Shown here: positions 5,525 to 28,272 of the stretch, piece after piece
How the letters are laid out: the number at the start of each line of letters is the position of its first letter
Numbering within the stretch: position 1 is the first letter of the stretch
Source: Telmatocola sphagniphila
GTDB taxonomy: Bacteria > Planctomycetota > Planctomycetia > Gemmatales > Gemmataceae
Length of the DNA: 32,000 nt
Reading direction: 5' to 3'
Assembly: GCF_018398935.1 (NCBI RefSeq)
Contig: NZ_CP074694.1
Span: 5,130,001-5,162,000 of the forward strand
Translations under genes and position numbers: made by a program
Notes under the pieces: model-generated
Told to the model about the DNA's origin: nothing
Seen by the model: only the letters and a program-made list of their open reading frames with translations
The model's database searches: none

Positions 5525-5635
5525 GGAAGACCCCACTTGAGGCTTGGACACGCACTCGAATCTTAAAGGGCCCACAGGAACACGTCAATCGCCTAATGAG
5601 GTACCGAAGAGTCTAAATTTGGAAGATTCCCCCAC

Positions 5636-9200: not shown

Positions 9201-9475
9201 AAGCCCAGGACATCACAGCTATTTTGCTCGAACTGAAGAAAGCCATCGACACCGAACTGGATGAACCGGAATACCAGCAGCTCTCTCTATTCGAAGATAA
9301 CGAAAAGGATCAGTTTGAACGGAACAAGGACTTCCTGCGGGACAGGTCGAAGGCGATCCCCGCTGAAATCGAACGGGAGACGGCGGCAATCAAGTCCCGC
9401 TATGCTGACCCGCAGCCCCGAATGTTCCCTGTGGCCGTGACGTTCCTCGTCCCTGAGAAGTTAGCAAAAGGATAA
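6290..9475 (+). CDS. drmD: SNF2-family helicase, DISARM class 1 DrmD-like (1061 aa)
   Basis: SNF2 motifs are present: LVADDVGLGKTIEAG (I), LLIVDEAHNC (II), FLTATPHNG (III), and the helicase-C region LLATDAAAEGLNLQ…YEIPWNPNRLEQRNGRIDRHGQK (V/VI). It lies in an operon with drmMI, drmA, drmB and drmC. Confidence 0.8.
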   Translation: MPNTNSIALHPEPGQMVSVRSRNWMVTDVSTSTLPPERLQTGLESPQHLITLSSVEDDGLGEELNVIWELEPGARVAEKVALPEPTGFDPPDQLDAFLDAVRWGASSSADLRNIQAPFRAGIDIEDYQLDPVVRAIQMPRVNLLVADDVGLGKTIEAGMVALELIIRHRTRKILIVCPASLQVQWQEQMRDKFGLDFRIVNSSMMGILRRSRGIHVNPWNHFPRLITSIDFLKRERPLRLFRELLPGPDEPAFPRKFDLLIVDEAHNCAPSGVGRYATDSMRTQALRLLVPHFEHKLFLTATPHNGYPESFSALLELLDNQRFARSTPLDRKQLNAVMVRRMKSELPPKWDGSPRFPKRALEPIEVPYTDEERAVHTALREYAELRVERSQDNSEKLATEFVLKTLKKRLFSSPAAFLTTLDSHEKSLRQAKRGKAVRKPSVSILKQELDRIDEDYADDNEYDEATSDAVNAASLLFSQPSEQELALLKKMRAWAEKASGQLDSKVNCLIEWLNTHIRPNKKWSHERVILFTEYRATLNWLKEVLAQHGFTKDDRLLTMYGGMDLDEREEVKNAFQSGPEESNVRILLATDAAAEGLNLQNHCYRLIHYEIPWNPNRLEQRNGRIDRHGQKGFLTANGERQVFVYHFVGQGYRNRQQSAFSPKASDLDADLEFLMRVAQKVETIREDLGSYGTVLADDVEQAMLGRGYSMPGVSRADSKVEPVRKMLKFERDLAKQIRELLEQYRDTQRELRLSPENIQKVVEVGLTLAEQPALIPIKHPSGKPVFQLPALKHSWAACREGLEHPHTGVVRPITFDHTAADGRDDLVLIHLNHRLVQMSLRLLRAEVWSVKGRKRLHRITARLVPDYALNSPAVIAHARLVVIGGDSHRLHEEIITAGGMLKEGRLSRLNIGELEKLLSVATSDEPYEPMQKHLLKLWDKFTPGLAQSLEARMKDRTSGLQKKLGERAEKEAQDITAILLELKKAIDTELDEPEYQQLSLFEDNEKDQFERNKDFLRDRSKAIPAEIERETAAIKSRYADPQPRMFPVAVTFLVPEKLAKG

Positions 9476-9478
9476 GCG

Positions 9479-11095
9479 ATGACCTCGCCAGATGAGATGC
9501 AGTATTTAATTGACCGCTGCACTTTTCAAAGTGTTAAGGCAGTCCTCTTTAGCAAGACAGATATTGACACTGTCGTACTTGTAAAACCTAATTGTTCGCT
9601 TGAGCAAGTGGCCACCTTTTGCGTCAATAACGATGCTTCCGCTCTGGAACGGCTCAAAGTCAAGACTGACATCGTATTCCTATCTCCTACCAAGCATCCT
9701 CGAACTCCGGTTGATCGTCACTCTTATCTCCTCGACTCAGATTTCGTCGAGGTACTTTTAGTCCCGCCCTTGTATCTAGTTCGTGCGAAACCACACACTC
9801 AGGCGCTGGAAAATGCAATAGCCGTATGTGGTATCACAAGATGCAAGCAGTGTGGTTTTCTTTGTGGCACAGAACTTTCGAGCCAATACTGGCATCCGCC
9901 GGTGAACTATTCAGCAGGTGTGGACGAATACTGCCTTGGATGTTGGCTTGATTGTGGACCAGATGCGACAAGTACCCGTCACCATGTTTTGGTTGAACCG
10001 ACGGGAGACTTGATCGTAGACTACAACGCTATTTTTCATTTAGGCTACCGCTTAGCAATCTTGCCCGTCGCACGCCTTGAACTAGGCTCAGCACCCATCT
10101 GTTTTCCTAATATGATTTGCTTTTATCCCCCTGGCACAATCGACCTAGAGCAATTATTGATTCGCTCGAACAGTGAAGGCACCCTTAGACTGGCTGAGCA
10201 TTCGAGCCTTGCCTCCCAAATAAACGAAAAGGTTCTATCAACCCATCCTTTGGTCGTACTCCCCTGTCGTTTTGACTGGGATGACTTTTGTAATGCAAGC
10301 CATAAAGCGCATCTCGAGTTTATTCGAAGTCTGTCCGAGATCATAGATGATGAGTGCTTCAACTTCATTCGTTACCGTCAGTGCCATATCGAACCAATTG
10401 ATATACTTCCCGGGCGTCCGGGACAGATAAATTCAAACCACATGATGGCCGGTGCATTACTGTTTGACCCAGAGAAAGGTGGACAAATCATTGGAGGAGA
10501 TGCTTTCACTCATATAGTCACACGAGGACTTGGCCTGCCTTTAGAGCCTATTGACTGCACGCAATTTCCAAGATTCGGTGAGGTAGGTAATTTTGTTAAA
10601 CATGTGTTGTCACTTTACTCACAGTTGATAGAAGCCAACAGTAGCACTACAAAGTTCGTTCAATGTCTAACTCTTTTAGAAGTTTTAGCTTCTGCAGAGG
10701 AATCGGAGCGTTTCAAAGCGTTCAAGAATACCAAGAAAAATATAGTTCGTTACGCTACAAATGATCATAACGAATATAAACGAATCATGACTAGGATGAT
10801 TGCTTTAACAGGGCTGAAAGACGAATCCGGAAAAAATATTGGCTACAGAACAGAAATCATTCATTTCGGCAAGCGTCTCGAATCACTAATTCCAAGTATT
10901 AATGAACGAGAGAACTTATTTCGAGAATTGGAAAATTACATAAAATGTGTCCTTGATCACTTAATCGATCACTCGGAAATGTCCTGGGAAGACTACAAAG
11001 TCATTCGAGATTCAATCGGCCCCTATGGGGTGGCCCCGGATACATCTCAGTCATCGACTGCTCCAGCACAGCAGACAGATGACATTCCATTTTGA
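9479..11095 (+). CDS. hypothetical protein (538 aa): CxxC…CxxC zinc ribbon and an alpha-helical C-terminus with an Rx4H motif
   Basis: It starts 3 nt after the drmD stop and ends 36 nt before drmMI. It contains CKQCGFLCG…CLGCWLDC and, near the C-terminus, LTLLEVLASAEE…GYRTEIIHFGKRL. Hand-counted 60-nt samples give about 37-38% GC, against about 57% in a drmD sample. Confidence 0.6.
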   Translation: MTSPDEMQYLIDRCTFQSVKAVLFSKTDIDTVVLVKPNCSLEQVATFCVNNDASALERLKVKTDIVFLSPTKHPRTPVDRHSYLLDSDFVEVLLVPPLYLVRAKPHTQALENAIAVCGITRCKQCGFLCGTELSSQYWHPPVNYSAGVDEYCLGCWLDCGPDATSTRHHVLVEPTGDLIVDYNAIFHLGYRLAILPVARLELGSAPICFPNMICFYPPGTIDLEQLLIRSNSEGTLRLAEHSSLASQINEKVLSTHPLVVLPCRFDWDDFCNASHKAHLEFIRSLSEIIDDECFNFIRYRQCHIEPIDILPGRPGQINSNHMMAGALLFDPEKGGQIIGGDAFTHIVTRGLGLPLEPIDCTQFPRFGEVGNFVKHVLSLYSQLIEANSSTTKFVQCLTLLEVLASAEESERFKAFKNTKKNIVRYATNDHNEYKRIMTRMIALTGLKDESGKNIGYRTEIIHFGKRLESLIPSINERENLFRELENYIKCVLDHLIDHSEMSWEDYKVIRDSIGPYGVAPDTSQSSTAPAQQTDDIPF

Positions 11096-11131: not shown

Positions 11132-14100
11132 ATGTCCATCACCCGCCACCATAACGAATGGCTGTCGCTCGTGCCGAACTCAGGCCCGTTCCTGAGTTTG
11201 CCGGTGCTGGCACAGGCGTTTCCGCAGGGACTTGATGCCCATGATGCGGATCACGCTCGGCGTCTGCGCATGGCGTTCGATGAATGGGACGACAACCAGT
11301 TGGGCAAACGGCCCGATCCGGGCATTCATCGGGCATGGTTGAAATTTGTATTGGGCGAGACGCTGGGCTACGACGAACATCTCGCCGAGGGGCAGGCGAT
11401 CCCGCAGACCCTCAAAAGCGAAGTCGCCGAATGCGGTGAAACTCTGCGGCCCGATTGGATCGTCAACGACCCCGCCTCGAAGAAGGCTCGGTTGCTCGTT
11501 CAGGTCTATCCACGCTCTCAATCATTAACGAAACCAGTGGCGGGAAAGCGTTGGAGTGCCTGGCCCGATGGTCGGATGATGCAACTGCTGCACGACACGG
11601 GCATCCGGCTTGGTATCGTCACCAATGGCGATCACTGGATGTTGGTGAATGCTCCGAAGAACGAAACGACAGGCTACGTCTCCTGGTACGCAAACCTCTG
11701 GCTTGAGGAACAGATCACGCTGCGGGCCTTCCGCACTTTGCTTGGAGCCGACCGTCTCTTCAGCGTGCCGGAAGACGAAACCCTCGAAGCCCTGCTCGAC
11801 AAGAGCGCTTCCGACCAGCAGGAAGTCACTGACCAGCTTGGGTATCAGGTCCGCAAGGCAGTTGAGGTCTTGATCCAGGCGCTCGACAAGGCGGACCAGG
11901 AACATGGACGGAAGTTGCTGGCCGATGTGAACGAAAAGGTTCTCTACGAGTCGGCCCTCACTGTCATGATGCGACTGGTGTTCCTGTTCTGTGCAGAAGA
12001 ACGGGAACTGCTTCTGCTGGGCGATGAACTCTACGACAAGAACTACGCCGTCAGTACACTGCGCGAACAGCTGCGCGTCACGGCAGATGAATTCGGTGAA
12101 GAAATCCTCGGTCTTCGTTATGACGCCTGGACCCGATTGCTTACAACCTTCCGGGCTGTTTACGCGGGAGCCAAGCACGACCGGCTCAAGCTCCCGGCCT
12201 ATGGCGGCAGTCTGTTCAACCCCGACCGTTTCCCGTTCCTCGAAGGACGCAAGTCCAACACAAGTTGGAAGAACACCGAGGCTACGCCGCTACCTGTCAG
12301 CAATCGCACGGTGTTGCATCTGCTCGAAGCTTTGCAGATCTTGCGGACTAAGATTGGCAATACCACCGAGGCTCGCAAAATCAGTTTCCGGGCGCTCGAC
12401 ATCGAACAGATCGGTCACGTCTACGAGGGCCTGCTCGACCACACCGCCAAGCGTGCGACCGAGCCGGTGTTGGGATTGGCGGGAACACGGGACAAGGAAC
12501 CCGAAATCGCCCTGGCCGAACTTGAGAAGATCGCCGCCAAGGGAGAGAAGGAACTGCTCAAATTCCTGAAGGATGAATCGGGCCGCTCAGAATCGGCGAT
12601 CAAGAAGGGCCTGAACGCCGAGATTGACGATCAGCTTGCCAGTCGCTTCCGTACCGCCTGTCAGGACTCGGACCTCTGGAAGCGGGTGAAGCCGTTCGCC
12701 GGGTTAGTGAGGCTCGATGATGTGGATTACCCGGTTGTCATCACCACGGGCAGTGTCTTCGTCACCGCTGGGACCGACCGACGCAGCAGCGGCACGCATT
12801 ACACTCCCAAGAGCCTCACCGAACCCATCGTGCAATACACGCTGGAGCCGCTGGTTTACGTCGGCCCCGCTGAAGGATTGCCCAAGGACCAGTGGAAGCT
12901 CCGTTCGGCCAAAGAACTGCTTGCCCTGAAGATATGCGACATGGCATGTGGCTCCGGGGCCTTTTTGGTCCAGGCGTGCCGATACATGGCGGCTCGACTG
13001 CTCGAAGCCTGGGACGCCGTTCAACGGGCCAACCCTGGAATAGTCCACATCACGCCTGAAGGCGAAACCTCAACGGGCAAGCCCGGTGAGATGCTGATCC
13101 CCGACGACCCCGACGAGCGCCAAACCTACGCTCTGCGGATCGTGGCCCAGCGTTGCTTGTACGGTGTGGACAAGAACCCGCTGGCAGCGGAAATGGCCAA
13201 GTTGTCGCTCTGGTTGTTGACTCTCGCCAAGAACAAGCCGTTCGAGTTCCTGGACCATGCTATCCGATGCGGCGATTCACTCGTCGGCATTCACAACCTC
13301 GAACAGTTGCGGAATTTCAGTCTCGATGGCAAGGGGGATGATCGGCGAGTGGTCCTGGCTTACATGGAGGACAAAATCCAGGAGGCTATCGCCCTACGTC
13401 GCCAGATTACCGAGATGCAGGCTCATACTGCCGAGGATGTCGAGGTTCAGGACCGGATGTTACGAGAGGCGAACGAAAAGATCGACCGGCTCAAGTGTGC
13501 CGCCGACATGCTGATTTCAGCCGAGTTCGCAGCCGGCTCCGCTCCCGACAAGCGATCCGCCAGGGACAATGCAGCGATCAAAGTGGCCGTTCATTTCGGC
13601 GACAGCGAGTTGCCAACATTTCGCCGAGAGGCACAGAAGGCACTTGCCGGTCAGGTGACGTTCCACTGGCCGCTAGAATTCCCCGAAGTCATGGTTGAGC
13701 GGGGTGGGTTCGATGCGTTTGTCGGGAATCCTGCTTATATGGGCGGTCAGAAACTAACGGGAGCCTTCGGCACCCCATACCGTGATTTCTTGGTTTGTCG
13801 AGTTGCAGATGGTCGCAAGGGGCTTGTCGATTTGTGCGCCTACTTCGTACTCCGCTCACACATTCTGCTTAAATCGATAGGGACTTGTGGCTTTGTTTCA
13901 ACCAGCGCCATTGCGGAAGGCGACACCAGAAGTGTTTGCTTGGACTGGCTCTGCAATAATGGATGGGTCATATTCCGGGCGAATCAACGCATGGCATGGC
14001 CCGGCGCTGCCAGCGTAACGTATACACCCATTTGGCTGACCTCCAGGCATTGGTGCGGGGCTTGCCATTTAGAGGACATACCTGTTGAGAGCATCACACC

Positions 14101-15712
14101 TTTTCTTGTTGCAAAGGGAACAGTGTCAGGTACGCCACATCGTCTTGCTGCGAATATCGGCTTGTCTTTCAACGGAGTCAAAGTGTACGGAAACGGCTTT
14201 GTGTTGGAACCCGTCGAAGCTCACCGACTCCTTGCGCAGAACGAGCGCAATAAGCAGGTGATTTTTCCATACATCACGGGACAAGATGTCAATAGCAAGC
14301 ATGATTCAAGCCATTCTGCTTGGGCAATCCGCTTTTTTGATTGGCCGTTGAACAGGAGCACGGCACCTGTTGGATACAAAGGGAATGTCGCAAGCGATTT
14401 CCCAGAATGTCTTGCCGTGGTCGAGGAGCGAGTGAAACCTGAACGCACCAGGACCGACAACAACGGCAACTATATCGTAAGAAAGCCTATGCCTCAGCAG
14501 TGGTGGATTTATGGGGAGAAACGCCCTGGTCTTTACGCTGCGATAGAATTGCTGGATGCCTGTTTTGCCATTGCGACGCAAGCAACAAAATATATTGCGT
14601 TTGAACGGCTTCAGCCACGGATGGTTTTTTCTCATTCCCTTGCTGTGATTGCCAGCGACTCATTTTCGGTGTTTGGGCTTCTAAGTTCGTCGCTCCATGA
14701 CGCTTGGGCGAGGCTATACGGATCGTATAATCTCGCATTGCTTCGGTATTCGCCTACTGACTTGCTTGAGACCTTTGCATTCCCAAGTGATCTTTCGGGC
14801 TTGGCCGATATGGGGCGTTGCTATTACGCCTCAAGAAAGAGAGTAATGGAATCTCGGATTGAGGGCATGACGGATATTTACAACCGCTTCCACGATCCCG
14901 ACGAAACCAGCCCCGACATCCAGAAGCTCCGACAACTCCACGTCGAGATGGACAACGCCGTAGCCGCCGCCTACGGCTGGACCGATCTCGACCTCGGCCA
15001 CGGCTTCCACGAGACGAAGCAGGGTGTCCGCTACACGATCAGCGAACACGCCCGCCGTGAAGTCCTCGCCCGCCTGCTCAAGCTGAACCACGAACGCTAC
15101 GCCGAGGAAGTGAAGCAAGGGCTGCACGAGAAGAAGAAGCCTGCGCTCAAACGCAAGGCGAAACTTGCGACAGCCACAGTTCAGGCGTCACTGTTTGACC
15201 ATGATGGCACGTTTCCCAGGCCGGGACTCGAAGATTACCTCTGCGGCCTTGTCTGCGATCTCGTCAAAGCGGACCCCGGACTGCCGGTTTCTGCGTATGT
15301 CGATAGTCTCGTGATTGCCCTGGGTTACGAGCGTCACCAACGACTCCTGACCGGCAAGGATCGCACCGCCTTTGCGAATCTCTGCAAAGCCTCGCCTTTG
15401 GCGTCGTGGAGTTCAACCAACAGAATCCCCTGGGCCGAGTTGCGCAACTTGCTGACTCAACGCAAGGCTATCAAACCGGAAGACCAAACGATTCAAGCTG
15501 GGCCGAAGTTGGCAGCGGTTCGGAATTCATATTCCGCTGCTGCACCCGAACTGGTCGCTTTGCTTCGCAAAGCATCAGCAGAGTTGGTTGAGCTACAAGC
15601 ATCTGTCGGCCCCGACAACGCTGAAGCCCCCAAGGACATCACGACAGAATTTACGGAAATTCTCCAGTCATTTGTGCATGACAAGGATCAGTGGTACGGA
15701 GTAGCAGCGTGA
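11132..15712 (+). CDS. drmMI: large N6-adenine DNA methyltransferase (Eco57I/type IIG-like), DISARM DrmMI-like (1526 aa)
   Basis: The SAM-binding motif I is ICDMACGSGAFLVQA. Motif IV has the typical context HWPLEFPEVMVERGGFDAFVGNPAYMGG. Its size and position next to an SNF2 helicase and the drmABC triad support the call. Confidence 0.8.
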   Translation: MSITRHHNEWLSLVPNSGPFLSLPVLAQAFPQGLDAHDADHARRLRMAFDEWDDNQLGKRPDPGIHRAWLKFVLGETLGYDEHLAEGQAIPQTLKSEVAECGETLRPDWIVNDPASKKARLLVQVYPRSQSLTKPVAGKRWSAWPDGRMMQLLHDTGIRLGIVTNGDHWMLVNAPKNETTGYVSWYANLWLEEQITLRAFRTLLGADRLFSVPEDETLEALLDKSASDQQEVTDQLGYQVRKAVEVLIQALDKADQEHGRKLLADVNEKVLYESALTVMMRLVFLFCAEERELLLLGDELYDKNYAVSTLREQLRVTADEFGEEILGLRYDAWTRLLTTFRAVYAGAKHDRLKLPAYGGSLFNPDRFPFLEGRKSNTSWKNTEATPLPVSNRTVLHLLEALQILRTKIGNTTEARKISFRALDIEQIGHVYEGLLDHTAKRATEPVLGLAGTRDKEPEIALAELEKIAAKGEKELLKFLKDESGRSESAIKKGLNAEIDDQLASRFRTACQDSDLWKRVKPFAGLVRLDDVDYPVVITTGSVFVTAGTDRRSSGTHYTPKSLTEPIVQYTLEPLVYVGPAEGLPKDQWKLRSAKELLALKICDMACGSGAFLVQACRYMAARLLEAWDAVQRANPGIVHITPEGETSTGKPGEMLIPDDPDERQTYALRIVAQRCLYGVDKNPLAAEMAKLSLWLLTLAKNKPFEFLDHAIRCGDSLVGIHNLEQLRNFSLDGKGDDRRVVLAYMEDKIQEAIALRRQITEMQAHTAEDVEVQDRMLREANEKIDRLKCAADMLISAEFAAGSAPDKRSARDNAAIKVAVHFGDSELPTFRREAQKALAGQVTFHWPLEFPEVMVERGGFDAFVGNPAYMGGQKLTGAFGTPYRDFLVCRVADGRKGLVDLCAYFVLRSHILLKSIGTCGFVSTSAIAEGDTRSVCLDWLCNNGWVIFRANQRMAWPGAASVTYTPIWLTSRHWCGACHLEDIPVESITPFLVAKGTVSGTPHRLAANIGLSFNGVKVYGNGFVLEPVEAHRLLAQNERNKQVIFPYITGQDVNSKHDSSHSAWAIRFFDWPLNRSTAPVGYKGNVASDFPECLAVVEERVKPERTRTDNNGNYIVRKPMPQQWWIYGEKRPGLYAAIELLDACFAIATQATKYIAFERLQPRMVFSHSLAVIASDSFSVFGLLSSSLHDAWARLYGSYNLALLRYSPTDLLETFAFPSDLSGLADMGRCYYASRKRVMESRIEGMTDIYNRFHDPDETSPDIQKLRQLHVEMDNAVAAAYGWTDLDLGHGFHETKQGVRYTISEHARREVLARLLKLNHERYAEEVKQGLHEKKKPALKRKAKLATATVQASLFDHDGTFPRPGLEDYLCGLVCDLVKADPGLPVSAYVDSLVIALGYERHQRLLTGKDRTAFANLCKASPLASWSSTNRIPWAELRNLLTQRKAIKPEDQTIQAGPKLAAVRNSYSAAAPELVALLRKASAELVELQASVGPDNAEAPKDITTEFTEILQSFVHDKDQWYGVAA

Positions 15713-17736
15713 CTCGAAAGGCGACGAAGACCGACAATCGACGCACTTCGCCCTTGTTCTGGGTGAAGCAAGTGACGTTGTATCGGTCGCTCTCGCCAGT
15801 TGAGGAAATACGCACCATTCCGTTCGCCCCTGGCTTGAACATCATCCAAGGAAAACTTGACGACTCTGCACAGGAATTCGAGTCCGGGCATGGCAATGGC
15901 AAAACGACCTTGTGCCGACTGATTCGCTACTGTCTAGGAGAAAAGACATTCGGCCAGGAACATCTGGTAGCCGAGGTCAAGCATTGCTTTCCGCACGGAT
16001 ACGTCGGTGCTGTCGTCGTAGTGAATGATGAAGAATGGAGCGTGTTGCGAACGGTCGGAAATCATCGGAAAGAGTTTGCTCGACAAGGCGTTTCGCTTGC
16101 TGATCTGACTGCTGCGGAGGATCGACCGGCCTACTCGGAGTTTCTGAACAGAATCCACGAGATTGGACTTTCGAGGCTTCAACAACGAGAAGTTCTCTCC
16201 GGTGGAGAGGTAATTCAATGGCTGCATGTGTTGGCGCTTTGCAGTCGAGATCAAGAGAGCCGTTACGACCGATTCTGGAATGTTCGCCCCTCGCGAAGTG
16301 ATTCAGGCTTCTCGAAGTTCACGAAGGTTGATGTGTCTCTTTGCGTGCGGGCAATGCTTGGAATGCTCGACGTTCGAGAACCACAGATTTTGAAACGTCA
16401 GTTGGAGTTGGAATCTGAACTGCACCAACTGCGAAAAAAGATCGAAGAGAAAACCTCCGAGCCAGCATTTCACATTACCCAACTACGCAATCGGCTCCTC
16501 AATGAATATGGGGTGGCGCAGGCAGATGTGGCTCCGCTGACATCGGAAGGTCTTTTCACCATTTCCAAAATGCGTGACGCTCGCCTCACGAGCATCCGAG
16601 ACGAGTTGGACGAGATCGAGCGGAAGATCGCAGACCTCGACACGCAAATCAACGGGGCCACGGCGAGACTCAACGAAATCCACGAGATGCAGGAACGGAA
16701 CGTGACCGCGAACGAAGCCACCGCCAGCGGTTCAGCCGTTCTCGAACAGTCCGTTGGCCCGGAGAACGAACGCCAGACCATCTTGGAAAAGATGGACAGG
16801 CTGTGTCCAACTGGTGAACTGGTTCGAGAATGCGAAAAGGTCAAAGAAAAGCTGGTTCAACTGGACAAGGAGATTACGAGCAAGAAGCTCACTGAAGACC
16901 AACGGCAAACGGTAGCGATAGTCCAGAGGCGGGATCAGGCTCAGGCCGAATTAGGCCGACAAGTGGAACGACAGGAGAACCCGCTCCAACAAATCCGGGC
17001 AAGGTTGAAGCAACTCAACGAGGAAAAGAACACGCTCCTGAAACGCACCGGCATCGTTAGCGAATGGTTGAGAGTGATTCCAAGAGTCACAGACGAGTTG
17101 CTGAAGTGGCACAGAGTTGAGCAAGGCGAAGAACCGAATCAAGAACTCACGACACTTCGTTCCGACGAGAAGAATAAAGTCGATGAAAGCGAACGACTGA
17201 AGGCTGAACTCGTAGTGTTGCTGACGAAGCAGAATGAGCGAATGCAACAGTTCCAAAGCCGGTTTCACGGCATCGTTCGACAGGCGATCAACTCCACGTT
17301 CAAGGGCGTGGTATCCGTCGCAAAAGATGAGCTTGTCTTCCGTATCAGCCGAGAGCGGTCTTTGGCTGGCGAGGCGTATGAGACGTTGGCCGTACTATTG
17401 GCCGACCTTGCAATTCTGTTGGAGAGTTCATCGGAATCCGTCTGCCATCCCGGTTTGCTAATTCACGACAGCCCACGGGAAGCCGACCTGAACGTGCGAC
17501 TTTACGAGAAAATGCTGGATGCAGCTTTCTCACTGATGACAGATGGACAAGGCAAAACGCCTTACCAATACATCGTAACGACCACGACTCAGCCATCCGA
17601 ATCGCTTCGCTTGGCAAACGTAACGAAGGAGACGTTGAGTAGCGGCCCTGGGTCGCTTTTCGGAATGCAGCTTGAAATTGGTTCGTCTGATGCCAACCAA
17701 GGAACACTTCCTTTTGGCGAAGGGAGTGACACATGA
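15709..17736 (+). CDS. SMC/ABC-type ATPase with a long coiled-coil insert (DUF3732/LmuB-like or DUF2326-like), ~675 aa
   Basis: The N-terminal head is IPFAPGLNIIQG…SGHGNGKTTLCRLIRYCLGE (Walker A). About 300 aa of heptad-rich E/K/R/L/Q sequence follow. The C-terminal head has GLLIHDSPREADL (Walker B/D-loop-like). The GTG at 15709 overlaps the drmMI stop (GTGA). Alternative starts are 15691 and 15763. Confidence 0.65.
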   Translation: MTRKATKTDNRRTSPLFWVKQVTLYRSLSPVEEIRTIPFAPGLNIIQGKLDDSAQEFESGHGNGKTTLCRLIRYCLGEKTFGQEHLVAEVKHCFPHGYVGAVVVVNDEEWSVLRTVGNHRKEFARQGVSLADLTAAEDRPAYSEFLNRIHEIGLSRLQQREVLSGGEVIQWLHVLALCSRDQESRYDRFWNVRPSRSDSGFSKFTKVDVSLCVRAMLGMLDVREPQILKRQLELESELHQLRKKIEEKTSEPAFHITQLRNRLLNEYGVAQADVAPLTSEGLFTISKMRDARLTSIRDELDEIERKIADLDTQINGATARLNEIHEMQERNVTANEATASGSAVLEQSVGPENERQTILEKMDRLCPTGELVRECEKVKEKLVQLDKEITSKKLTEDQRQTVAIVQRRDQAQAELGRQVERQENPLQQIRARLKQLNEEKNTLLKRTGIVSEWLRVIPRVTDELLKWHRVEQGEEPNQELTTLRSDEKNKVDESERLKAELVVLLTKQNERMQQFQSRFHGIVRQAINSTFKGVVSVAKDELVFRISRERSLAGEAYETLAVLLADLAILLESSSESVCHPGLLIHDSPREADLNVRLYEKMLDAAFSLMTDGQGKTPYQYIVTTTTQPSESLRLANVTKETLSSGPGSLFGMQLEIGSSDANQGTLPFGEGSDT

Positions 17737-19610
17737 ATGCCAGCGATATCCTGGCGGCAGTAAACGCCGGGGAAGACAAAGATTGGGAATTTAAGTCGGC
17801 CAGGGGCGGCATGCCGGGGAGTCTTTGGGAAACCTACAGTGCGATGGCGAACACCGATGGCGGCGTCATCGTCCTGGGTATCCGGGAGAACGACGGCGAC
17901 TTCGAGGTTCAAGGACTGGACGATCCCGTCAAGATCGAGAAAGACTTCTGGACCACAATCCACAACCGGGGCAAGGTCAACGCCAACCTACTTGCCAACA
18001 GCAATGTGCGAATCGTGCCTGTTGATGGCAAACTGGTCCTTTTCGTAGAAGTCCCTCGCGCCTCAAGACGGCAGCGCCCGATCTTCGTGGGCCAGAATCC
18101 ACTCGAAGGAACCTATCGGCGATACAGCGACGGCGACTACTTGTGCAGCCGGGATGAAGTGGGTCGGATGCTGGCGGATCAATCCGAGCAATCCGCAGAC
18201 AGCCGTATCTTGTTGAAGTTCACGCCGCACGATCTTGACGACGAATCTCTGAGGCAGTACCGCAATCGCTTTTCAGCCCGCAACCCGAATCATGCATGGC
18301 TGACAGAGGACACGACAGGCTTCCTTCGTAAACTCGGCGGTTGGAATGTCAACCGGGAGACAGGCGAAGAGGGATTGACTGTGGCCGGACTCTTGATGTT
18401 CGGCAACGAGGATGCATTAAACGATCCATCGATTGGACTAAAATTCCATCTTGATTATCGAGAGCGAGTCAGCAACTCGATAGCGGATCGCTGGGTGGAT
18501 CGGCTAACCATTGACGGAACTTGGATGCCGAACCTGTTCCAGTTCTTCCAGCGGGTTTACCCGAAGTTGATAATCGGGCTGAAGCTGCCCTTCGCTTATC
18601 AAACACTCAACTCGCCATCCCTCTTCACTGATCCGCTGCGTAGTGGCATGTCTCCTACCCATGAGGCGATTCAGGAAGCACTTGTCAACGCACTCATCCA
18701 CGCCGATTACCGAGGTCTAGGCGGGGTAGTTATCGACCGCTATCCCGACAGGCTGGAGCTATCGAATCCTGGCACTCTTTTGGTGTCGTTAGAGCAGTTG
18801 CGGCACTCGGTAACCGAGTGTCGGAATCCTTTGCTTCAACGGATGTTTCAAATGATGGGGGCGTGCGATAAGGCGGGGTCTGGCATCGATAAAATCCGCC
18901 AGGGTTGGGCCTCGCAAAAGTGGCGATGGCCTATTATTGAAGAGCAACTTAAACCCGATCGGGTGAGGCTGACTCTGCCGATGGTTAGTCTGTTACCGGA
19001 AGACTCTTTGGCCCGGTTACGCCTAGTTCTGGGTGATAACATGGGTGGACTGGACGGACATGAGGTCCAGGCATTGGTGACCGCGGACGTGGAAGGTAGT
19101 GTCTCCAACCATCGTTTACAGCAGTTCTCCAGCGAACACACAACCGACATCACTCGAATGCTGCAAGACTTGGTGGCTAAAGGATTTCTGATCAAAGATA
19201 ATTACGGTCGTTGGGCTTCATACCGGCTGGCGGAGCAGTTTATGAACTCCAGACATGGGGAGTCTACTCCAGATACGGACTCCGGACATGGCGAAGCAAC
19301 TCCGGATACGAACTCCGGACATGGGGAGATTACCGAGAATCAACAACAGTTATTGAAGATCGCCGAACCCGCCCGAAAAAAGCGACAACTGAACCCTGAA
19401 ATCATGCGAGCGATTATTAGAGAATTGTGCGATGGACGTTATCTGACAGTCAAACAACTTGCAGAATTATTGAGTCGAGAGTCGAATGGCCTCCAGAGAT
19501 GGACACTACGTCCAATGGCTCAAGATGGGCAGCTAGTGATGCAGTATCCAGATAACCCCAACCATCCGAAACAATCGTATCGAACCAATCCAGCGTGGAG
19601 TGCGGAATGA
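17733..19610 (+). CDS. Schlafen-like AlbA_2 domain protein with HATPase_c_4-like region and C-terminal wHTH domains (COG2865-type, often mis-annotated RecG-like), 625 aa
   Basis: The AlbA_2 signature is GEDKDWEFKSARGG…SAMANTDGGVIVLGIRE. The middle region is THEAIQEALVNALIHADYRG…DRLELSNPGTL. The C-terminal wHTH-like segments are TRMLQDLVAKGFLIKDNYGRWASYRL and LTVKQLAELL…YPDNPNHPKQSYR. Its ATG overlaps the upstream stop (ATGA, 17733-17736). Confidence 0.75.
   Translation: MNASDILAAVNAGEDKDWEFKSARGGMPGSLWETYSAMANTDGGVIVLGIRENDGDFEVQGLDDPVKIEKDFWTTIHNRGKVNANLLANSNVRIVPVDGKLVLFVEVPRASRRQRPIFVGQNPLEGTYRRYSDGDYLCSRDEVGRMLADQSEQSADSRILLKFTPHDLDDESLRQYRNRFSARNPNHAWLTEDTTGFLRKLGGWNVNRETGEEGLTVAGLLMFGNEDALNDPSIGLKFHLDYRERVSNSIADRWVDRLTIDGTWMPNLFQFFQRVYPKLIIGLKLPFAYQTLNSPSLFTDPLRSGMSPTHEAIQEALVNALIHADYRGLGGVVIDRYPDRLELSNPGTLLVSLEQLRHSVTECRNPLLQRMFQMMGACDKAGSGIDKIRQGWASQKWRWPIIEEQLKPDRVRLTLPMVSLLPEDSLARLRLVLGDNMGGLDGHEVQALVTADVEGSVSNHRLQQFSSEHTTDITRMLQDLVAKGFLIKDNYGRWASYRLAEQFMNSRHGESTPDTDSGHGEATPDTNSGHGEITENQQQLLKIAEPARKKRQLNPEIMRAIIRELCDGRYLTVKQLAELLSRESNGLQRWTLRPMAQDGQLVMQYPDNPNHPKQSYRTNPAWSAE
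19245..19328 (+). repeat. 33-bp coding tandem repeat (~2.6 copies) in the linker of the AlbA_2 protein
   Basis: The units are 19245-19277, 19278-19310 and 19311-19328, encoding NSRHGESTPDT / DSGHGEATPDT / NSGHGE. Units 1 and 2 are identical at 26/33 positions. Inside, a 13-nt motif ACTCCRGAYAYGR occurs 5 times with alternating 20- and 13-nt spacing. Confidence 0.85.
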
Positions 19611-22600
19611 GTACAGCGCCACTGAAACCCACCGTCTCGCCCCTCCAACTTCGGGATGAACTCGAAACGATGGTCCTAAAGGAACTGCTTGGCCCCGGTA
19701 GCTTTGACGAGGAACTTATCGAGTCTCCCGGAACTCGGTATTTCGTGGGCGTCCTGGCTCCCCGTAAGCGTGCCAAGGCAGAGGAGGTACTCGCCAAGGC
19801 GGCCGCTGCTCCTGCCGGAGACGATGAAGAAGGAGACACGGACCTTGAGATGCTCGATGGTGATGAACTCGCTCTCGGCGGCAAAGATTCTTCGCAAGAC
19901 GGCACGACGGATCTGGCTCCGGCTCAGGACAAAGCTCTGATCCCGTCGTCGTTCGGCATGACCTTTTCTCTAAACATTGAGGCCAAAGAACTGGAACTGA
20001 CGGCGACCTGGGGCCAGTACGTCAAACAGTTCAGCGAATATCTCGTTAGCGAGAAGACCGGCAATCCTCGGAAAGTGTGGAAGCGATTTCCTCGTGGGGG
20101 CAGGCACTGCCTGAAACTGAAGGAAGGGCCCATCTCACCAATCCCGCTCGATAAAAATTGTCCCGAGGTAGTTGTCCAGGGCCTTATCCGCAAACGCAAA
20201 GATCACTGGTGTGTCACGGTATTCCTGGTCAATGAGCAGCAGGAGCCTGAGAAGCTGAAGGACACTGCCTGGATATTTCAACCGGAACTGATGGCTGAGG
20301 GAATAGATGGCGCGGCAGTCATCCACAAACGGCACACTATCCTGGAACTCACTGGCACGGACCCGAGAGTGAAGGCCGAGAACGATCAGCTGGCGATGCT
20401 CTATCGTCGGCACATCGAGTTCGCCGTGGGGCATGGCATTGGCGTACATGTCGATATCTCACCTGATCCGAATTACGCTTTCAGTGTCCGCACTAAGGTG
20501 ATACCAAGTTACGAGATCCCCAAGACGACCCCACCCCGACCCGAAGACGCCGAGATCAACCCGTCCTTCGCCAAGTTGCAGGGCATGGTCCTTGATATGA
20601 AGGTGTTGGCCGAGGCCAGCCCGAAGCAATATGGGTCGAAGCTGAAACCGCTGGTCGAAGCCTATCAAGATTGGATCGACCGAGAAGAAAAACGGATTAA
20701 TGATCCCATCGAAGGACTGGCGAGCTTCAAGAATCCCGCCCAGCAAGCCATTGCCAAATGCCGCACGACGCTCAAGCGAATCGAAGAAGGGCTGGACTTG
20801 CTCGACAAGGACGAGAAAGCTGCTCAGGCGTTCTCCTTCATGAACCGAGCCATGTGGCTCCAGCGAACCCACTCCCTCTTTGCAGAGCGTGTACGCCGCG
20901 GCGACGATAAGCCCGACATGGGGGCCATCGACATTTCCGAGAACCGCAGTTGGTATCCGTTCCAGCTTGCGTTTGTACTGCTAAATTTACCGGGGATCAC
21001 AAAGTTCGATCACCCCGACCGCAGCGAATCCCCAGAAGCTGTGGCGGATCTGCTCTGGTTTCCAACCGGTGGCGGTAAAACTGAAGCTTACCTGGGCCTG
21101 ACCGCCTACACGCTGGGACTGCGACGGCTGCAAGGGATAGTCGAAGGTCGTTCCGGAGAAAACGGCATCACGGTGTTGATGCGGTACACTTTAAGACTTC
21201 TAACTCTCCAGCAATTTCAACGAGCCACTACTTTAATCTGTGCGTGTGAGGATATTCGACGCGAAGCTGCTAGTAATGGTGATCACCGCTGGGGAGAGAC
21301 TCCATTCCGAATCGGTTTATGGGTCGGAGGTGGAACCACACCTAACTGGACCAATGACAGCGATGAAGCTATTAAACTCGCTCGCAGTCCAAGACGTTCC
21401 AGCTCTATCGGGGGTACGGGATCTCCGAATCAACTGACCAATTGCCCCTGGTGCGGTACGAAGATTGATCCCGGTAAACACATCATCGTGGAGAAGTACT
21501 CCACCGGTACTTGCCGCACGTTGATTTATTGTGGAGCGTCGGAAGATAAATGCATTTTCAATAGGAAGTTAGCCGCAGGTGAAGGCCTGCCAGTAATAGT
21601 CGTGGACGAGGAAATCTATCGTCGCCTGCCATCGCTATTGATTACTACCGTGGACAAGTTCGCACAGATGCCGTGGAACGGCTCTGTCCAGATGCTCTTC
21701 GGTCAAGTGGACGGATATTGTGAACGACACGGCTTCCGGTCGCCGGGATTGGCTGATTGGTCTGAAGAATTGGAAGTTAACGCAGTCCACCGGGGAAAGG
21801 GACAAGAGAAGTCAGCCAAGGTTCTACCTCATACTCGCTTGCGACCACCAGACCTAATCATCCAGGACGAGTTACATCTCATTAGTGGTCCTCTCGGTAC
21901 TTTAGTCGGGCTCTATGAGACGGCCATCGATCGACTCTGCACTTGGGAAGTGAAGGGTAAGAAAATCCGTCCAAAGGTTGTGGCATCGACGGCAACGATC
22001 CGTAATGCGAAGGACCAATTGCACGCTCTGTTTCTTCGCCGGCTGGAGACATTCCCACCGAACGGATTAGACATCAGAGACAATTTCTTCTCCCTACAGC
22101 GGCCCTCAAACGAGAAGACACCCGGGCGCAAGTATATAGGCGTGTGTGCCCCTGGACGCCGTTTGAAGGCAGCACTCATTCGGGTATATGTTGCGTTCCT
22201 ATCTGCAGGTCAGGTGTTGTTCGAAAAGTATGGCCTGGATGCCGACCCCTGGATGACTCTCGTGGGATACTTTAACAGCCTACGAGAACTCGGTGGCATG
22301 AAGCGCCTAGTCGATGACGACGTCCGCACTCGACTTCGGAGAATGGCGGATCGCGGATTAGCGAAGCGAATTCTTCATACTCCTGATGCCGTAAAAGAAC
22401 TTACTTCCCGATTGGGTTCCGGAGCGATCCCCGAAATTCTCGATCTTCTGGAGAGTCGCTTCGACCCGGCACAATTCGATCAGTTTAAGCAAGGCAAGGC
22501 AGGAGGCGAATTCGTCTCCCGTCCAATTGACGTATTGATGGCAACGAACATGATCTCGGTTGGGGTGGACGTGCCTAGGCTGGGATTGATGGTTACTGCC

Positions 22601-23224
22601 GGTCAGCCGAAAACAACAGCAGAATATATTCAGGCTACCAGCCGTGTTGGGCGTAAGCATCCTGGTCTAGTCTGCACAGTCTACAACTGGGCAAGACCAA
22701 GGGACTTATCCCACTACGAAACATTCGAACATTATCACTCCACTTTTTACAAACATGTAGAAGCCCTATCAGTTACTCCATTCTCGGCTGGAGCAACTTC
22801 TCGCGGACTGGCCGCGTTGCTGATTTCATTAGTCCGTCAGCCAGGCTTCGAGTTTAACTCAAACGACAAGGCCATGCAGATGGCAACCCAAAGAAACCAT
22901 CAATATGTCACGGACGCGATAGAAGCGATCACCAGTCGAGCTGAATTGATTGCCGGTGTCCCAGCCGCTGATGAAGTCCGGCAGCAACTCAAACGAAAGA
23001 TGGACCTTTGGCAGAAACGTGCACAACGTACGGCCCAAGGCAATCAGCTGGGATATGAGACGAAAAAAGATGGTGTGACGATTGGCTTGCTGCGTAAGCC
23101 CAGTATTGAACCATGGGACGAATTTACTTGCTTAAACTCCCTCCGGGATGTTGAACCGACTGCCAATTTGATTCTTGATGATTTTGGCATGGATGACGAG
23201 CCCGATGACGGAGAAACGCCATGA
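19607..23224 (+). CDS. drmA: DISARM DrmA-like superfamily-2 helicase (~1205 aa)
   Basis: Helicase motifs are present: LWFPTGGGKTEAYLG (I), LIIQDELHLISGPLG (II), and LMATNMISVGVDVPRLGLMVTAGQPKTTAEYIQATSRVGR (V/VI). There is an inserted zinc ribbon, CPWCG…YCGASEDKC. Its ATG at 19607 overlaps the upstream stop (ATGA), and a DUF1998 gene follows immediately. Confidence 0.8.
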   Translation: MSTAPLKPTVSPLQLRDELETMVLKELLGPGSFDEELIESPGTRYFVGVLAPRKRAKAEEVLAKAAAAPAGDDEEGDTDLEMLDGDELALGGKDSSQDGTTDLAPAQDKALIPSSFGMTFSLNIEAKELELTATWGQYVKQFSEYLVSEKTGNPRKVWKRFPRGGRHCLKLKEGPISPIPLDKNCPEVVVQGLIRKRKDHWCVTVFLVNEQQEPEKLKDTAWIFQPELMAEGIDGAAVIHKRHTILELTGTDPRVKAENDQLAMLYRRHIEFAVGHGIGVHVDISPDPNYAFSVRTKVIPSYEIPKTTPPRPEDAEINPSFAKLQGMVLDMKVLAEASPKQYGSKLKPLVEAYQDWIDREEKRINDPIEGLASFKNPAQQAIAKCRTTLKRIEEGLDLLDKDEKAAQAFSFMNRAMWLQRTHSLFAERVRRGDDKPDMGAIDISENRSWYPFQLAFVLLNLPGITKFDHPDRSESPEAVADLLWFPTGGGKTEAYLGLTAYTLGLRRLQGIVEGRSGENGITVLMRYTLRLLTLQQFQRATTLICACEDIRREAASNGDHRWGETPFRIGLWVGGGTTPNWTNDSDEAIKLARSPRRSSSIGGTGSPNQLTNCPWCGTKIDPGKHIIVEKYSTGTCRTLIYCGASEDKCIFNRKLAAGEGLPVIVVDEEIYRRLPSLLITTVDKFAQMPWNGSVQMLFGQVDGYCERHGFRSPGLADWSEELEVNAVHRGKGQEKSAKVLPHTRLRPPDLIIQDELHLISGPLGTLVGLYETAIDRLCTWEVKGKKIRPKVVASTATIRNAKDQLHALFLRRLETFPPNGLDIRDNFFSLQRPSNEKTPGRKYIGVCAPGRRLKAALIRVYVAFLSAGQVLFEKYGLDADPWMTLVGYFNSLRELGGMKRLVDDDVRTRLRRMADRGLAKRILHTPDAVKELTSRLGSGAIPEILDLLESRFDPAQFDQFKQGKAGGEFVSRPIDVLMATNMISVGVDVPRLGLMVTAGQPKTTAEYIQATSRVGRKHPGLVCTVYNWARPRDLSHYETFEHYHSTFYKHVEALSVTPFSAGATSRGLAALLISLVRQPGFEFNSNDKAMQMATQRNHQYVTDAIEAITSRAELIAGVPAADEVRQQLKRKMDLWQKRAQRTAQGNQLGYETKKDGVTIGLLRKPSIEPWDEFTCLNSLRDVEPTANLILDDFGMDDEPDDGETP

Positions 23225-25089
23225 ACAATAATGATTCTAAACGCTGCAAAGTAGGCGAACTTCGTCCTAGTCAAGCACTTACTACCTTCGGTATCGGCTC
23301 GATTATTGACCTGCCAAATTTGTCTGTAATGGTAATGGGTCTGGAAGATTGGTCGTATAAGGACACCGTGGAGATTGGCGAACAACGGCTTCTGGCTTCG
23401 GTAAAAGAAATGCTGGGGCATCAAGTCAAGTCCCTTAGGTCGGCTCCGGTCGTCCCTGATACCTATCAAGTGAATCAGTTTGATTCCGCGACGCTCGTGG
23501 GTATTCCCGTTGCTCCTTTTCCTCGTTGGATGGTATGCCCATATTGCAGACGACTTGCTCCTCTGGGGAGTGGTCTGTTCAAGTTAGAGACACCCTACCG
23601 TACCGATCAGATTCGCTACATACATGCGAACTGTACAAAGCCCGGCAAGTCGCCTACTATCGTGCCCGCCCGCTTTATCGTGGCTTGTAAGAATGGTCAT
23701 TTCGATGATTTTCCCTGGCGGGATTTCGTCCATCGTGGACCCAACAATTGTAAGGGTGGTCTGAAGCTCCTCGAAAACTCAGCCACTGGAGAAGCCGCAA
23801 GTATCTTCGTACAGTGCGAAGGTGCAAATTGCGGAGCTACTCGCCCGATGTCCGATGCTTTTAAAATGGATCTGATGGCGATGCCAGTCTGCAAGGCACG
23901 TCGTCCTCATCTCAGAGATCACGATGATGCCGGATGTAAGACACCCAATGGTCAAGACATGCGAATGGAGCCAATGCTCCAAGGTGCATCGAACTCCTGG
24001 TTCGGGCTCACACTTTCGGCGTTGGCGATTCCCCAAGCGTCCGGAAAACTGAAACAACTCGTTGAAGATAACTGGACGACTTTGGGGAAAGTACAGAGTG
24101 AACAAAACATTGAACTCTTGATGTCTATCTCGCAGTTACGTGACCTTTCCGAGTATACTGCCGCTGAAATCTGGCAGGCAGTCCAAGCCAAAAAAACCGA
24201 AGTTCCGGAAGAAGATGTTGAACCGACCGATATCAAGACGCCCGAATGGGAAGTCTTTATCAACCCCGACTCCTCGGAAAAAGGTCGGGACTTTCAGATT
24301 CGGATCGCCGCTCCTCCAAAAAGATACGCCAAGTACTTTGAGAAAATCGTCTTGGCCGAGCGATTGCGAGAAGTGAGAGCATTAGTCGGGTTTACTCGAA
24401 TCGAATCGCCCAGCGATTATGACAACCCTACAGCTTTTCCTGAGAATCAACGGGTTCCGCTTTCTCGCACGCAACCAACCTGGGTACCTGCATCAGAGAT
24501 TCGGGGCGAAGGTCTGTTTTTTCAATTCAAGGAAGACGTAATCCAAAAGTGGGTCAAGAAAGCTAAGAGCTTGGACGCCGTATTTATGGAAGCTCACCAA
24601 CGGTGGCGTAGCGCACGTAAGTTGGAACCGCCACAAGAATTTTACCCCGGGATTCGCTACGTTTTGCTGCACTCATTTGCACACGCATTAATTCGTCAAT
24701 TGGCAGTTGAATGCGGTTATACAACGGCTTCCCTTAGAGAGCGGATTTATTCAACGAATTCCAAAAAGCCCGAAGTTGAGATGGCAGGAGTTTTGATTTA
24801 CACAGCTGCACCGGACAGTGAAGGCACACTTGGTGGTCTGGTGTCTCTCGGCAAACCGGAAACGTTAGAACGGCATCTAGATCAGGCTCTGGACAATATG
24901 CGGCTGTGTGCCAGCGATCCGCTCTGTGCCGAGCATCATCCGTATCGGGATGGCAACACGCTGCATGCCGCCTCGTGCCATGCCTGCTTATTCGCTCCAG
25001 AAACGTCCTGCGAGCGCGGCAACAAATATCTGGACCGAGCAGTACTTGTTTCCACTGTCGAACGCAGCGACTTGGCATTCTTCGAGTAA
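23221..25089 (+). CDS. drmB: DUF1998 (MrfA-type Zn-binding domain) protein, DISARM DrmB-like (622 aa)
   Basis: The Cys clusters are MVCPYCRRL, ACKNGHFDDFPW and VQCEGANCG. The characteristic C-terminus is LCASDPLCAEHHP…LHAASCHACLFAPETSCERGNKYLDR. Its ATG overlaps the drmA stop (ATGA, 23221-23224). Confidence 0.8.
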   Translation: MNNNDSKRCKVGELRPSQALTTFGIGSIIDLPNLSVMVMGLEDWSYKDTVEIGEQRLLASVKEMLGHQVKSLRSAPVVPDTYQVNQFDSATLVGIPVAPFPRWMVCPYCRRLAPLGSGLFKLETPYRTDQIRYIHANCTKPGKSPTIVPARFIVACKNGHFDDFPWRDFVHRGPNNCKGGLKLLENSATGEAASIFVQCEGANCGATRPMSDAFKMDLMAMPVCKARRPHLRDHDDAGCKTPNGQDMRMEPMLQGASNSWFGLTLSALAIPQASGKLKQLVEDNWTTLGKVQSEQNIELLMSISQLRDLSEYTAAEIWQAVQAKKTEVPEEDVEPTDIKTPEWEVFINPDSSEKGRDFQIRIAAPPKRYAKYFEKIVLAERLREVRALVGFTRIESPSDYDNPTAFPENQRVPLSRTQPTWVPASEIRGEGLFFQFKEDVIQKWVKKAKSLDAVFMEAHQRWRSARKLEPPQEFYPGIRYVLLHSFAHALIRQLAVECGYTTASLRERIYSTNSKKPEVEMAGVLIYTAAPDSEGTLGGLVSLGKPETLERHLDQALDNMRLCASDPLCAEHHPYRDGNTLHAASCHACLFAPETSCERGNKYLDRAVLVSTVERSDLAFFE

Positions 25090-28091: not shown

Positions 28092-28272
28092 TCTCCTTAA
28101 TCAATCAATAATTTGCTGAGGCAGTATTTGAAAAATACCATGATAACGGCCTTAACATTGAGATCAACGTTTCCAATACAGGGAACGAAATATTGTGGTT
28201 TTCCATTTAAAAAAACGAGTTCTACGAATCTGCTGGGCCAACCCGTAACATTTCTGTCTGGGAGTGCGGAAC

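Follow-up and report, generated by a model that had tools for sequence, protein, structure and literature searches.

The window analysed here is a stretch of 32,000 nucleotides (nt) of contig NZ_CP074694.1 from Telmatocola sphagniphila (Planctomycetota); coordinates are given in window numbering. It harbors a genuine class 1 DISARM operon carrying three insertions. Two of these, an open reading frame (ORF) for an ATPase of 675 amino acids (aa) at 15709-17736 (+) and an ORF for a Schlafen protein of 625 aa at 17733-19610 (+), lie one after the other between the methyltransferase gene drmMI and the helicase gene drmA; the third is orf538. A preliminary description had taken the two adjacent genes for a single module. 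Their distribution indicates that they are probably two independent add-ons, separately acquired and co-transcribed rather than a dedicated pair, the ATPase being an accessory of the methyltransferase module and the Schlafen protein an embedded defence protein.

The constant neighbour of the ATPase is the upstream methyltransferase, not the downstream gene. Motif scans retrieved 504 relatives of the ATPase from contigs representing one genome per species and over 538 from metagenomes, and the best 160 loci, 155 of them non-redundant, were analysed. In 116 out of 135 non-redundant loci whose upstream sequence extended over 1.5 kb or more, a large PglX/DrmMI-like N6-adenine methyltransferase was encoded directly 5' of the ATPase. 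The distance from methyltransferase stop to ATPase start displayed a median of 12 nt; it was 20 nt or less in 76 out of 91 cases and never exceeded 100 nt. Gene maps of the 15 loci without a DrmMI-like methyltransferase showed the ATPase start always abutted by an upstream gene on the same strand, and six of the seven such neighbours scanned with Pfam were restriction-modification-type enzymes. These seven neighbours comprised Type ISP enzymes (L076, L148), a Type III Res-like helicase-nuclease (L133), a ResIII/SNF2-type helicase (L158), a DUF7008-Eco57I methyltransferase (L099), a type I S-like protein (L008) and an AAA_21 ABC ATPase (L047).

The usual operon around the ATPase consisted of a fused YprA-like helicase with DUF1998, an SNF2 helicase, the methyltransferase and the ATPase, in this order, which corresponds to ARMADA type I (Bell et al.) with the ATPase added. 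ARMADA type I was defined by a YprA-like helicase, a BrxHII-like SNF2 helicase and a PglX-like methyltransferase, and the text of that preprint mentions no ATPase, ABC, SMC or HNH component (Bell et al., 10.1101/2025.09.15.676423). Among 89 ATPase loci with at least 9 kb of upstream sequence, an ARMADA-type YprA lay upstream in 65 and a DrmA downstream in nine, while none displayed both. In the ATPase tree, the ATPases of planctomycete DISARM loci formed one clade. That of an Opitutaceae DISARM locus (L038) fell outside it and clustered with ARMADA-type ATPases from the same family (L035, L039, L040); therefore, the unit of SNF2 helicase, methyltransferase and ATPase appears to have recombined with YprA helicases of both kinds and to have been exchanged between DISARM and ARMADA.

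The ATPase is nevertheless an optional component. In a plasmid collection, an ARMADA-type YprA was found in 70 records and a DrmA homologue in 101, but the ATPase in only eight. At least seven of these eight records also carried an ARMADA-type YprA, none of the eight figured among the 40 DrmA records listed, and the ATPase was absent from the three plasmid DISARM loci inspected. Of seven viral loci centred on the methyltransferase, only one displayed it.

Presence of the ATPase coincides with that of an additional domain on the methyltransferase. The DrmMI protein of the window (1526 aa) runs ~175 aa beyond the end of the PADLOC DrmMI model, and this extension includes a C-terminal domain of ~135 aa (aa ~1358-1490; 15203-15601, +). 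No Pfam, PADLOC or PDB sequence or profile match was obtained for it. A profile built from this domain matched 79 out of 92 methyltransferases linked to the ATPase, DISARM and ARMADA types alike. Among loci that had not been selected for the ATPase, the domain was present in both of those with an ATPase (L163, L184) and in none of the ten DISARM or ARMADA loci without one (L161, L174-L179, L183, L187, L192); an exact test on this split, calculated by hand, gave p ~0.015. Two close DISARM relatives illustrate the point: the methyltransferase of L161 ends where the domain of L163 would begin, and the ATPase of L163 is missing from L161 as well.

The product of the first gene is a short-LmuB/YydD-like SMC-family ABC ATPase without effector domain. 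The PADLOC LmuB model PDLC03859 matched it along its full length (1.9e-26). Its AlphaFold2 model (pLDDT, the predicted local distance difference test score, of 85.8; alignment of 53 sequences) displayed N- and C-terminal half-heads connected by two long antiparallel helical arms. A Foldseek search of the PDB ranked YydD of B. subtilis first (DUF2326; 9a6c, 2.6e-16), followed by LmuB of type II and Salmonella Lamassu (9uxh and 9hqu, 1e-14 to 9e-14) and then by Rad50, MukB, SMC, Smc5/6 and JetC. The SMC/Rad50-type fold and the kinship with LmuB and DUF2326 proteins, which the preliminary description had proposed from the sequence, were thus supported by the PADLOC match and the Foldseek ranking. 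Other searches contributed little: Pfam offered nothing useful for the ATPase, NCBIfam no match for it, the Schlafen protein or orf538, and sequence and profile searches of the PDB with the ATPase only coiled-coil noise, apart from a marginal match to the coiled coil of LmuB 9hqu (E 0.0076). The PADLOC model PDC-M68B was rejected as an assignment; it matched only part of the protein, the N-terminal head, and was derived from a different, untested cassette of two genes or of A-middle-B type.

Both of the motifs quoted in the preliminary description were located. The Walker A motif GHGNGKT (aa 60-66; 15886-15906, +) has G60, H61, G64 and K65 invariant in 53 homologues, and in the Walker B region, LLIHD-S followed by PRE (aa 583-591, LLIHDSPRE; 17455-17481, +), all residues from H586 to E591 (H586, D587, S588, P589, R590, E591) are invariant. 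The D-S of this Walker B agrees with hhhhD[Q/S/T/E], the consensus of short LmuB proteins (10.1101/2025.04.02.646746). Further conserved motifs were a Q-loop-like RDQ, a signature-like L(A/S)GEA and QYIVTTTT in place of the H-loop. At the apex of the coiled coil, a Cys-x8-Cys motif (C366...C375; 16804-16833, +) with C366 invariant and C375 present in at least 90 % of homologues falls in the break between the two long arms of the model, and it is possibly a zinc-hook-like dimerisation motif. An exhaustive profile search placed 764 representative clusters in the family at E<=1e-30. Nearly all of the 150 clusters listed were ~640-716 aa long, the few shorter ones looked truncated, and no fused effector domain was found among them. 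The polypeptide of the window stops ~30 aa past its C-terminal head.

The ATPase would thus represent an optional fourth component of the module of SNF2 helicase and PglX-like methyltransferase shared by class 1 DISARM and ARMADA type I, and it is a short-LmuB-like SMC protein with a Walker B of slow-hydrolysis type. Its resemblance to Lamassu extends to its LmuB-like size (~650 aa), its fold, its short coiled coil and the D-S of its Walker B. In that system, LmuA stays sequestered by LmuB and LmuC until DNA has been sensed (10.1101/2025.03.14.643221, 10.1101/2025.04.02.646746). Because an upstream protein with an extra C-terminal domain followed by the ATPase gene mirrors the Lamassu order, LmuA with its C-terminal docking/oligomerisation domain and then LmuB, a dimer of the ATPase may, by analogy, dock on the methyltransferase through the ~135-aa domain. 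It could then act as a sensor or clamp on DNA, for example on DNA ends or replication intermediates, and recruit or license the methyltransferase and helicase machinery on incoming DNA. The domain is analogous to the docking domain of LmuA by position only. The system itself is not a Lamassu, given that neither LmuA nor LmuC is present: PADLOC LmuA models matched neither DrmMI, nor its C-terminal domain, nor the Schlafen protein; no homologue of LmuC, a small component missing from some Lamassu (ABC-3C) systems as well, was detectable with PADLOC, and with overlapping genes no small ORF would fit between drmMI and the ATPase gene or between the latter and the Schlafen gene. Two further differences are the upstream partner, a methyltransferase of 1526 aa instead of a small toxic effector, and the apex of the ATPase, C-x8-C instead of CxxC.

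A more elaborate version of this mechanism, to which we give tentative credit and a chance well short of even, would have the LmuB-like dimer hold the DISARM or ARMADA methyltransferase by a dedicated C-terminal docking domain and, upon meeting phage DNA ends or replication intermediates, switch the methyltransferase or its helicase partners between self-marking and attack, with the Schlafen RNase serving as a fail-safe in some lineages.

Several observations weigh against an accessory role of this kind. The domain and the ATPase gene are contiguous; a single indel or deletion would take out both, so their joint absence is weaker evidence than it looks. The control set without ATPase was small (ten loci), and the profile missed 13 of the 92 linked methyltransferases as well as those of two plasmid loci (L172, L173) with C-termini that seem analogous, though divergent. 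Furthermore, the domain displayed no sequence similarity to LmuA or LmuC. Distances of ATPases and methyltransferases were correlated (Mantel r 0.42, reached in 0 out of 999 permutations), but r was 0.02 among distant pairs; since the correlation vanishes there, co-phylogeny of the two proteins was dropped as evidence. Finally, the occurrence of the ATPase after Type ISP, Type III-like and Type I-like enzymes suits a general cargo gene equally well. As for the Schlafen protein, prokaryotic Schlafens of histidine-kinase type failed to protect E. coli from the coliphages with which they were challenged (PMC13056530).

Some of these points lend themselves to the reading that the ATPase is autonomous cargo, for instance a reduced Lamassu minus its effector, and that its position is a favoured insertion site without any tie to the methyltransferase. 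The scarcity of the ATPase in plasmid records (eight, compared with 70 for YprA and 101 for DrmA) and in viral loci (one out of seven) would fit, as would its variety of restriction-modification-type neighbours; short Lamassus can lose components (10.1101/2025.04.02.646746), and defence genes are commonly embedded in DISARM. On the other side, the ATPase lacks an effector domain and is followed by no conserved partner that could act as one. Its place right after the methyltransferase stop is invariant, it co-occurs with a dedicated domain of that methyltransferase, and even in the 15 loci without a DrmMI-like methyltransferase it was never free-standing, six of the seven neighbours scanned being of restriction-modification type. 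The cargo reading is therefore considered unlikely, and the ATPase is better described as an accessory of the methyltransferase module.

The relation between ATPase and Schlafen gene was far less regular than that between ATPase and methyltransferase. Among loci with at least 4 kb of downstream sequence, a Schlafen gene followed the ATPase in 10 out of 106, or in 12 loci when shorter ones were counted, in DISARM as well as in ARMADA contexts; about 90 % of ATPase loci had none. The 14 DISARM-type ATPase loci, window included, were split into five with a Schlafen gene between ATPase and drmA (the window, L063, L082, L085, L087), four in which the ATPase directly abutted drmA (L001, L004, L081, L084) and five with other inserts, one of them a HEPN/RES protein. 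The closest relatives of the ATPase (L001 and L081, 73 % identity) were among those devoid of a Schlafen gene. Identities to the window proteins were discordant, with 53 % for the ATPase and 74 % for the Schlafen protein in L082, and 30 % and 51 %, respectively, in the ARMADA-type locus L074. Schlafen-positive loci were scattered over the ATPase tree. The Schlafen family is also by far the larger: among 8000 proteins scored, 3195 belonged to the Schlafen family at E<=1e-10, as against 126 at E<=1e-5 for the ATPase.

A sample taken from the Schlafen side, seven close homologues picked solely for their long contigs, led to the same picture. In five of the seven, the Schlafen gene lay just upstream of drmA; among these five, the ATPase was clearly present in L163, none was detected in L161, L168 and L169 (a degraded operon), and L171 was too fragmented. 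The remaining two (L167, L170) displayed the Schlafen gene alone among housekeeping genes. The seven-gene order of the window was repeated in marine contigs L163-L166. Each of the two genes was thus recovered from other DISARM loci, but across loci they are distributed independently, which leaves the two-gene module of the preliminary description without support.

That description had offered a Lamassu-like sensor-effector pair with a Schlafen-type effector. In such a pair, or in a split PrrC/RloC-like one, the ATPase would sense foreign DNA or inhibition of DISARM and activate the Schlafen RNase. PrrC and RloC, two anticodon nucleases with an ABC-ATPase part, are encoded within type I restriction-modification loci, and the likeness is that of a Rad50-like ABC ATPase and a nuclease directed at tRNA, here presumptively so, inside an operon of restriction-modification type. 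This precedent, the LmuB-like nature of the ATPase, the 4-nt overlap of the two genes, their succession in 12 loci of both DISARM and ARMADA types and the recurrence of the seven-gene order in L163-L166 would all speak for a pair. Most ATPase loci, including those of the closest relatives, nevertheless lack the Schlafen gene, which in turn is found in ATPase-free DISARM operons (L161, L168) or on its own (L167, L170); identities are discordant (L082, L074) and Schlafen loci scattered on the ATPase tree. Neither protein matched PADLOC LmuA or LmuC models, the putative effector would lie downstream, opposite to the Lamassu order, and the Schlafen protein possesses GHKL and winged helix-turn-helix (wHTH) domains of its own. 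In PrrC and RloC, moreover, ATPase and nuclease form one polypeptide, whereas here they are products of two independently distributed genes and the nuclease families are unrelated; the ATPase carries no fused nuclease domain, and identity with PrrC or RloC was rejected. Without a detectable partner of LmuA or LmuC type and with independent distributions, a pair of either sort is improbable. Of the options raised earlier, a new DISARM accessory comes nearest for the ATPase, although it is more an accessory of the SNF2-methyltransferase module than of DISARM as such.

The product of the second gene is a prokaryotic Schlafen (pSlfn) of the HisKinase-HTH class of PMC13056530. Pfam identified SLFN_AlbA_2 (PF04326, 2e-13, above cutoff) at aa 14-135 and HATPase_c_4 (PF13749, 3e-15, passing threshold) at aa 332-406, and sequence matches in the PDB were 2kyy and 3lmm. 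In the structural model (pLDDT 68 overall, 77-91 in the N-terminal domain), Foldseek matched the uncharacterised 3lmm over the full length (1e-21), 2kyy and many MarR-type wHTH proteins, together with SLFN11 and SLFN13 at probabilities of 0.97-0.99 and also SLFN12, all three with weak E-values. The architecture given in the preliminary description (AlbA_2, GHKL-like and wHTH domains) was therefore sustained; MarR-like matches attest the wHTH folds, their number, stated to be two, being tentative at a pLDDT of 68.

Prokaryotic Schlafens display the catalytic motif Ex4(E/D)xK (PMC13056530). In the window protein it reads E14-x4-E19-x-K21 (E14-DKDW-E19-F-K21; 17772-17795, +), with E14, E19 and K21 invariant in 42 homologues and the motif kept also in distant ARMADA-linked copies. 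Tentative candidates for the third acidic residue of the eukaryotic Schlafen triad, equivalent to SLFN13 D248, were D42, present in at least 90 % of homologues, and E52, replaced by Q in some. In the GHKL region, the N-box-like segment HEAIQEALVNALIHAD (aa 310-325; 18660-18707, +) has E315, N319 and H323 invariant, as is the lid motif G382-x-G384. The two C-terminal wHTH regions are connected by a linker, GHGE(A/S)TPDT(D/N)S, that is specified by a 33-nt tandem repeat of 2.6 copies (19244-19328, +); homologues carry at this site repeats differing greatly in length and sequence.

COG2865-type proteins can no longer be said to lack an established mechanism, as the preliminary description had it, since pSlfns were described as phage-activated tRNases (Perez Taboada et al., Nat Microbiol 2026, PMC13056530) and the present architecture was catalogued in BREX (PMC12839542). 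The HisKinase-HTH class represents 19.2 % of pSlfns; phage-triggered tRNA cleavage was demonstrated only for the Ig-like fusion RorSlfn5, and no HisKinase-HTH fusion member was yet shown to protect against phage (PMC13056530). Schlafens with a minimal histidine kinase and wHTH were reported from within BREX systems of at least 1017 taxa and were read as backup suicidal effectors (PMC12839542). The window protein shares with this class the domain order, the Ex4(E/D)xK motif and a location within PglX-based defence operons, whereas the operons that host it belong to DISARM or ARMADA instead of BREX. It may accordingly be regarded as a putative self-contained defence protein with its own sensor domains and a tRNase-type effector presumed to cleave tRNA, which would serve as a second-line abortive backup co-expressed with DISARM. 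That the AlbA_2/HATPase_c_4/wHTH protein is instead a transcriptional regulator of the drmABC part, as its source annotations ("transcriptional regulator", "putative DNA binding domain-containing protein"), its MarR-like wHTH folds and its consistent position just 5' of drmA might suggest, is most improbable, considering that the gene is internal to the operon, with stop/start overlaps on either side, that the catalytic Ex4ExK is invariant, that the class is treated as RNase effectors with sensor domains (PMC13056530, PMC12839542) and that close homologues occur away from any DISARM genes.

The surrounding operon conforms to class 1 DISARM, which is defined by a core triplet preceded by the SNF2 helicase gene drmD and the N6-adenine methyltransferase gene drmMI (10.1101/2021.12.28.474362). 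PADLOC and Pfam recovered the complete set on one strand: drmD (6290-9475, +; PADLOC DrmD 1402 bits), drmMI for a PglX/MmeI-like N6-adenine methyltransferase (11132-15712, +; PADLOC DrmMI PDLC02643 1743 bits, Pfam Eco57I and MmeI), the helicase gene drmA (19607-23224, +; PADLOC DrmA 1055 bits), drmB with DUF1998/MZB (23221-25089, +; PADLOC DrmB 2.7e-80, Pfam MZB) and drmC for a PLD nuclease (25094-25897, +; PADLOC DrmC 3.8e-76, Pfam PLDc_2). ORF coordinates, PADLOC and Pfam agreed with the preliminary description in placing the genes for the ATPase and the Schlafen protein in the drmMI-drmA interval and outside the class 1 gene set. The overlaps of 4 nt reported there were found as well, GTGA at 15709-15712, ATGA at 17733-17736 and ATGA at 19607-19610, and homologue N-termini favoured the ATPase start at GTG 15709 over an upstream GTG at 15691. 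G+C content (GC) was near that of the DISARM core, with 52.7 % for the ATPase gene and 53.5 % for the Schlafen gene compared with 50.3-56.8 % for the five DISARM genes. The two genes had been said to look integral and co-translated. Co-translation is indicated by the overlaps; partnership is not, because overlaps of 4 nt are ordinary in operons, and an operon-like GC is compatible with an origin as cargo. A promoter and terminator scan of the operon gave no excess over shuffled sequence and no internal terminator on the + strand within 15709-19610.

The position that follows the ATPase or methyltransferase serves as a general site for cargo. Elsewhere the slot between drmMI and drmA held PIN, an ATP-binding protein with O-methyltransferase, RES, DRT1 and IrrE-HTH genes, and the slot 3' of the ATPase or methyltransferase also held HEPN/RES, HNH and other genes, a pattern that matches the embedding of defence genes described in DISARM (10.1101/2024.01.29.577857). 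An HNH_2 endonuclease gene closed the ARMADA-type operon after the ATPase in 21 out of 106 loci (for example at 13914-14690 in L172 and 12096-12881 in L071). In six ARMADA-type loci (L039, L040, L069, L074, L080, L124), a DRT type 1 reverse transcriptase-nitrilase gene (~1270-1340 aa) was located between the ATPase and the terminal HNH gene, and in L074 and L080 a Schlafen gene came after DRT1.

A third embedded gene, orf538 (9479-11095, +), separates drmD from drmMI and did not appear in the preliminary account of non-DISARM genes in the operon. Its family is unassigned, with no match in Pfam, PADLOC or NCBIfam, and it is a compositional outlier (GC 44.5 %, 42 % at third codon positions (GC3), against 50-57 % for the operon). 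Among 5.8 billion proteins, just 23 homologues were retrieved. The gene was probably inserted recently and singly, and is a candidate for a role in defence. One homologue (P0244, in L233) adjoins QatABCD-like genes in a defence island, and a shorter relative of 350 aa occurs in a non-defence context. The corresponding slot of L161 is occupied by a gene for an NYN-domain RNase (5342-5893). Further downstream in the window, a tyrosine integrase gene (29585-31204) overlaps the 3' end of a tRNA-Asp gene (31149-31224, -), and the DISARM operon is therefore cargo of an island that is integrated at tRNA-Asp and ends at the integrase. An AAA/RepA-like gene is found at 28264-29352.

Compared with described systems, the window resembles class 1 DISARM in having all five genes in canonical order on one strand, and differs from it by orf538, the ATPase, the Schlafen protein and the additional C-terminal domain of the methyltransferase; the canonical DISARM of Deinococcus p96k has neither these genes nor the domain. 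With ARMADA type I it has in common the module of SNF2 helicase and methyltransferase, and most relatives of the ATPase sit at the 3' end of such operons, but the window displays split DrmA and DrmB downstream, not a fused YprA upstream, and is thus not an ARMADA type I locus. The helicase-methylase-ATPase triad of Hma, which often carries embedded genes, offers a further parallel. HmaB, however, is a 5-methylcytosine methyltransferase (Payne et al. 2021, PMC8565338), whereas DrmMI is an N6-adenine enzyme of Eco57I/MmeI type and the ATPase gave no match to HmaC or any other PADLOC Hma model, so that Hma was rejected as the identity of the system.

The association of the ATPase with its co-varying methyltransferase domain is undescribed as far as the searchable literature goes, whereas the Schlafen protein is a known and widespread pSlfn class in a new host system. 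The latter carries the published pattern of embedding in BREX over to DISARM and ARMADA, and provides a natural context for the commonest pSlfn class, unvalidated so far. For annotation, the lesson is that apparent pairs of overlapping genes in defence operons can be two independent insertions. The ATPase bears on the question of how DISARM and ARMADA recognise foreign DNA and avoid their own: as a conserved SMC-like subunit that is present in only some operons and goes with one particular extra domain of the methyltransferase, it offers a testable handle, and it suggests that LmuB-type sensors are reused outside Lamassu. If the ATPase does dock on the methyltransferase and switch it or its helicase partners between self-marking and attack, these operons would represent a hybrid of SMC-based DNA sensing and epigenetic restriction.

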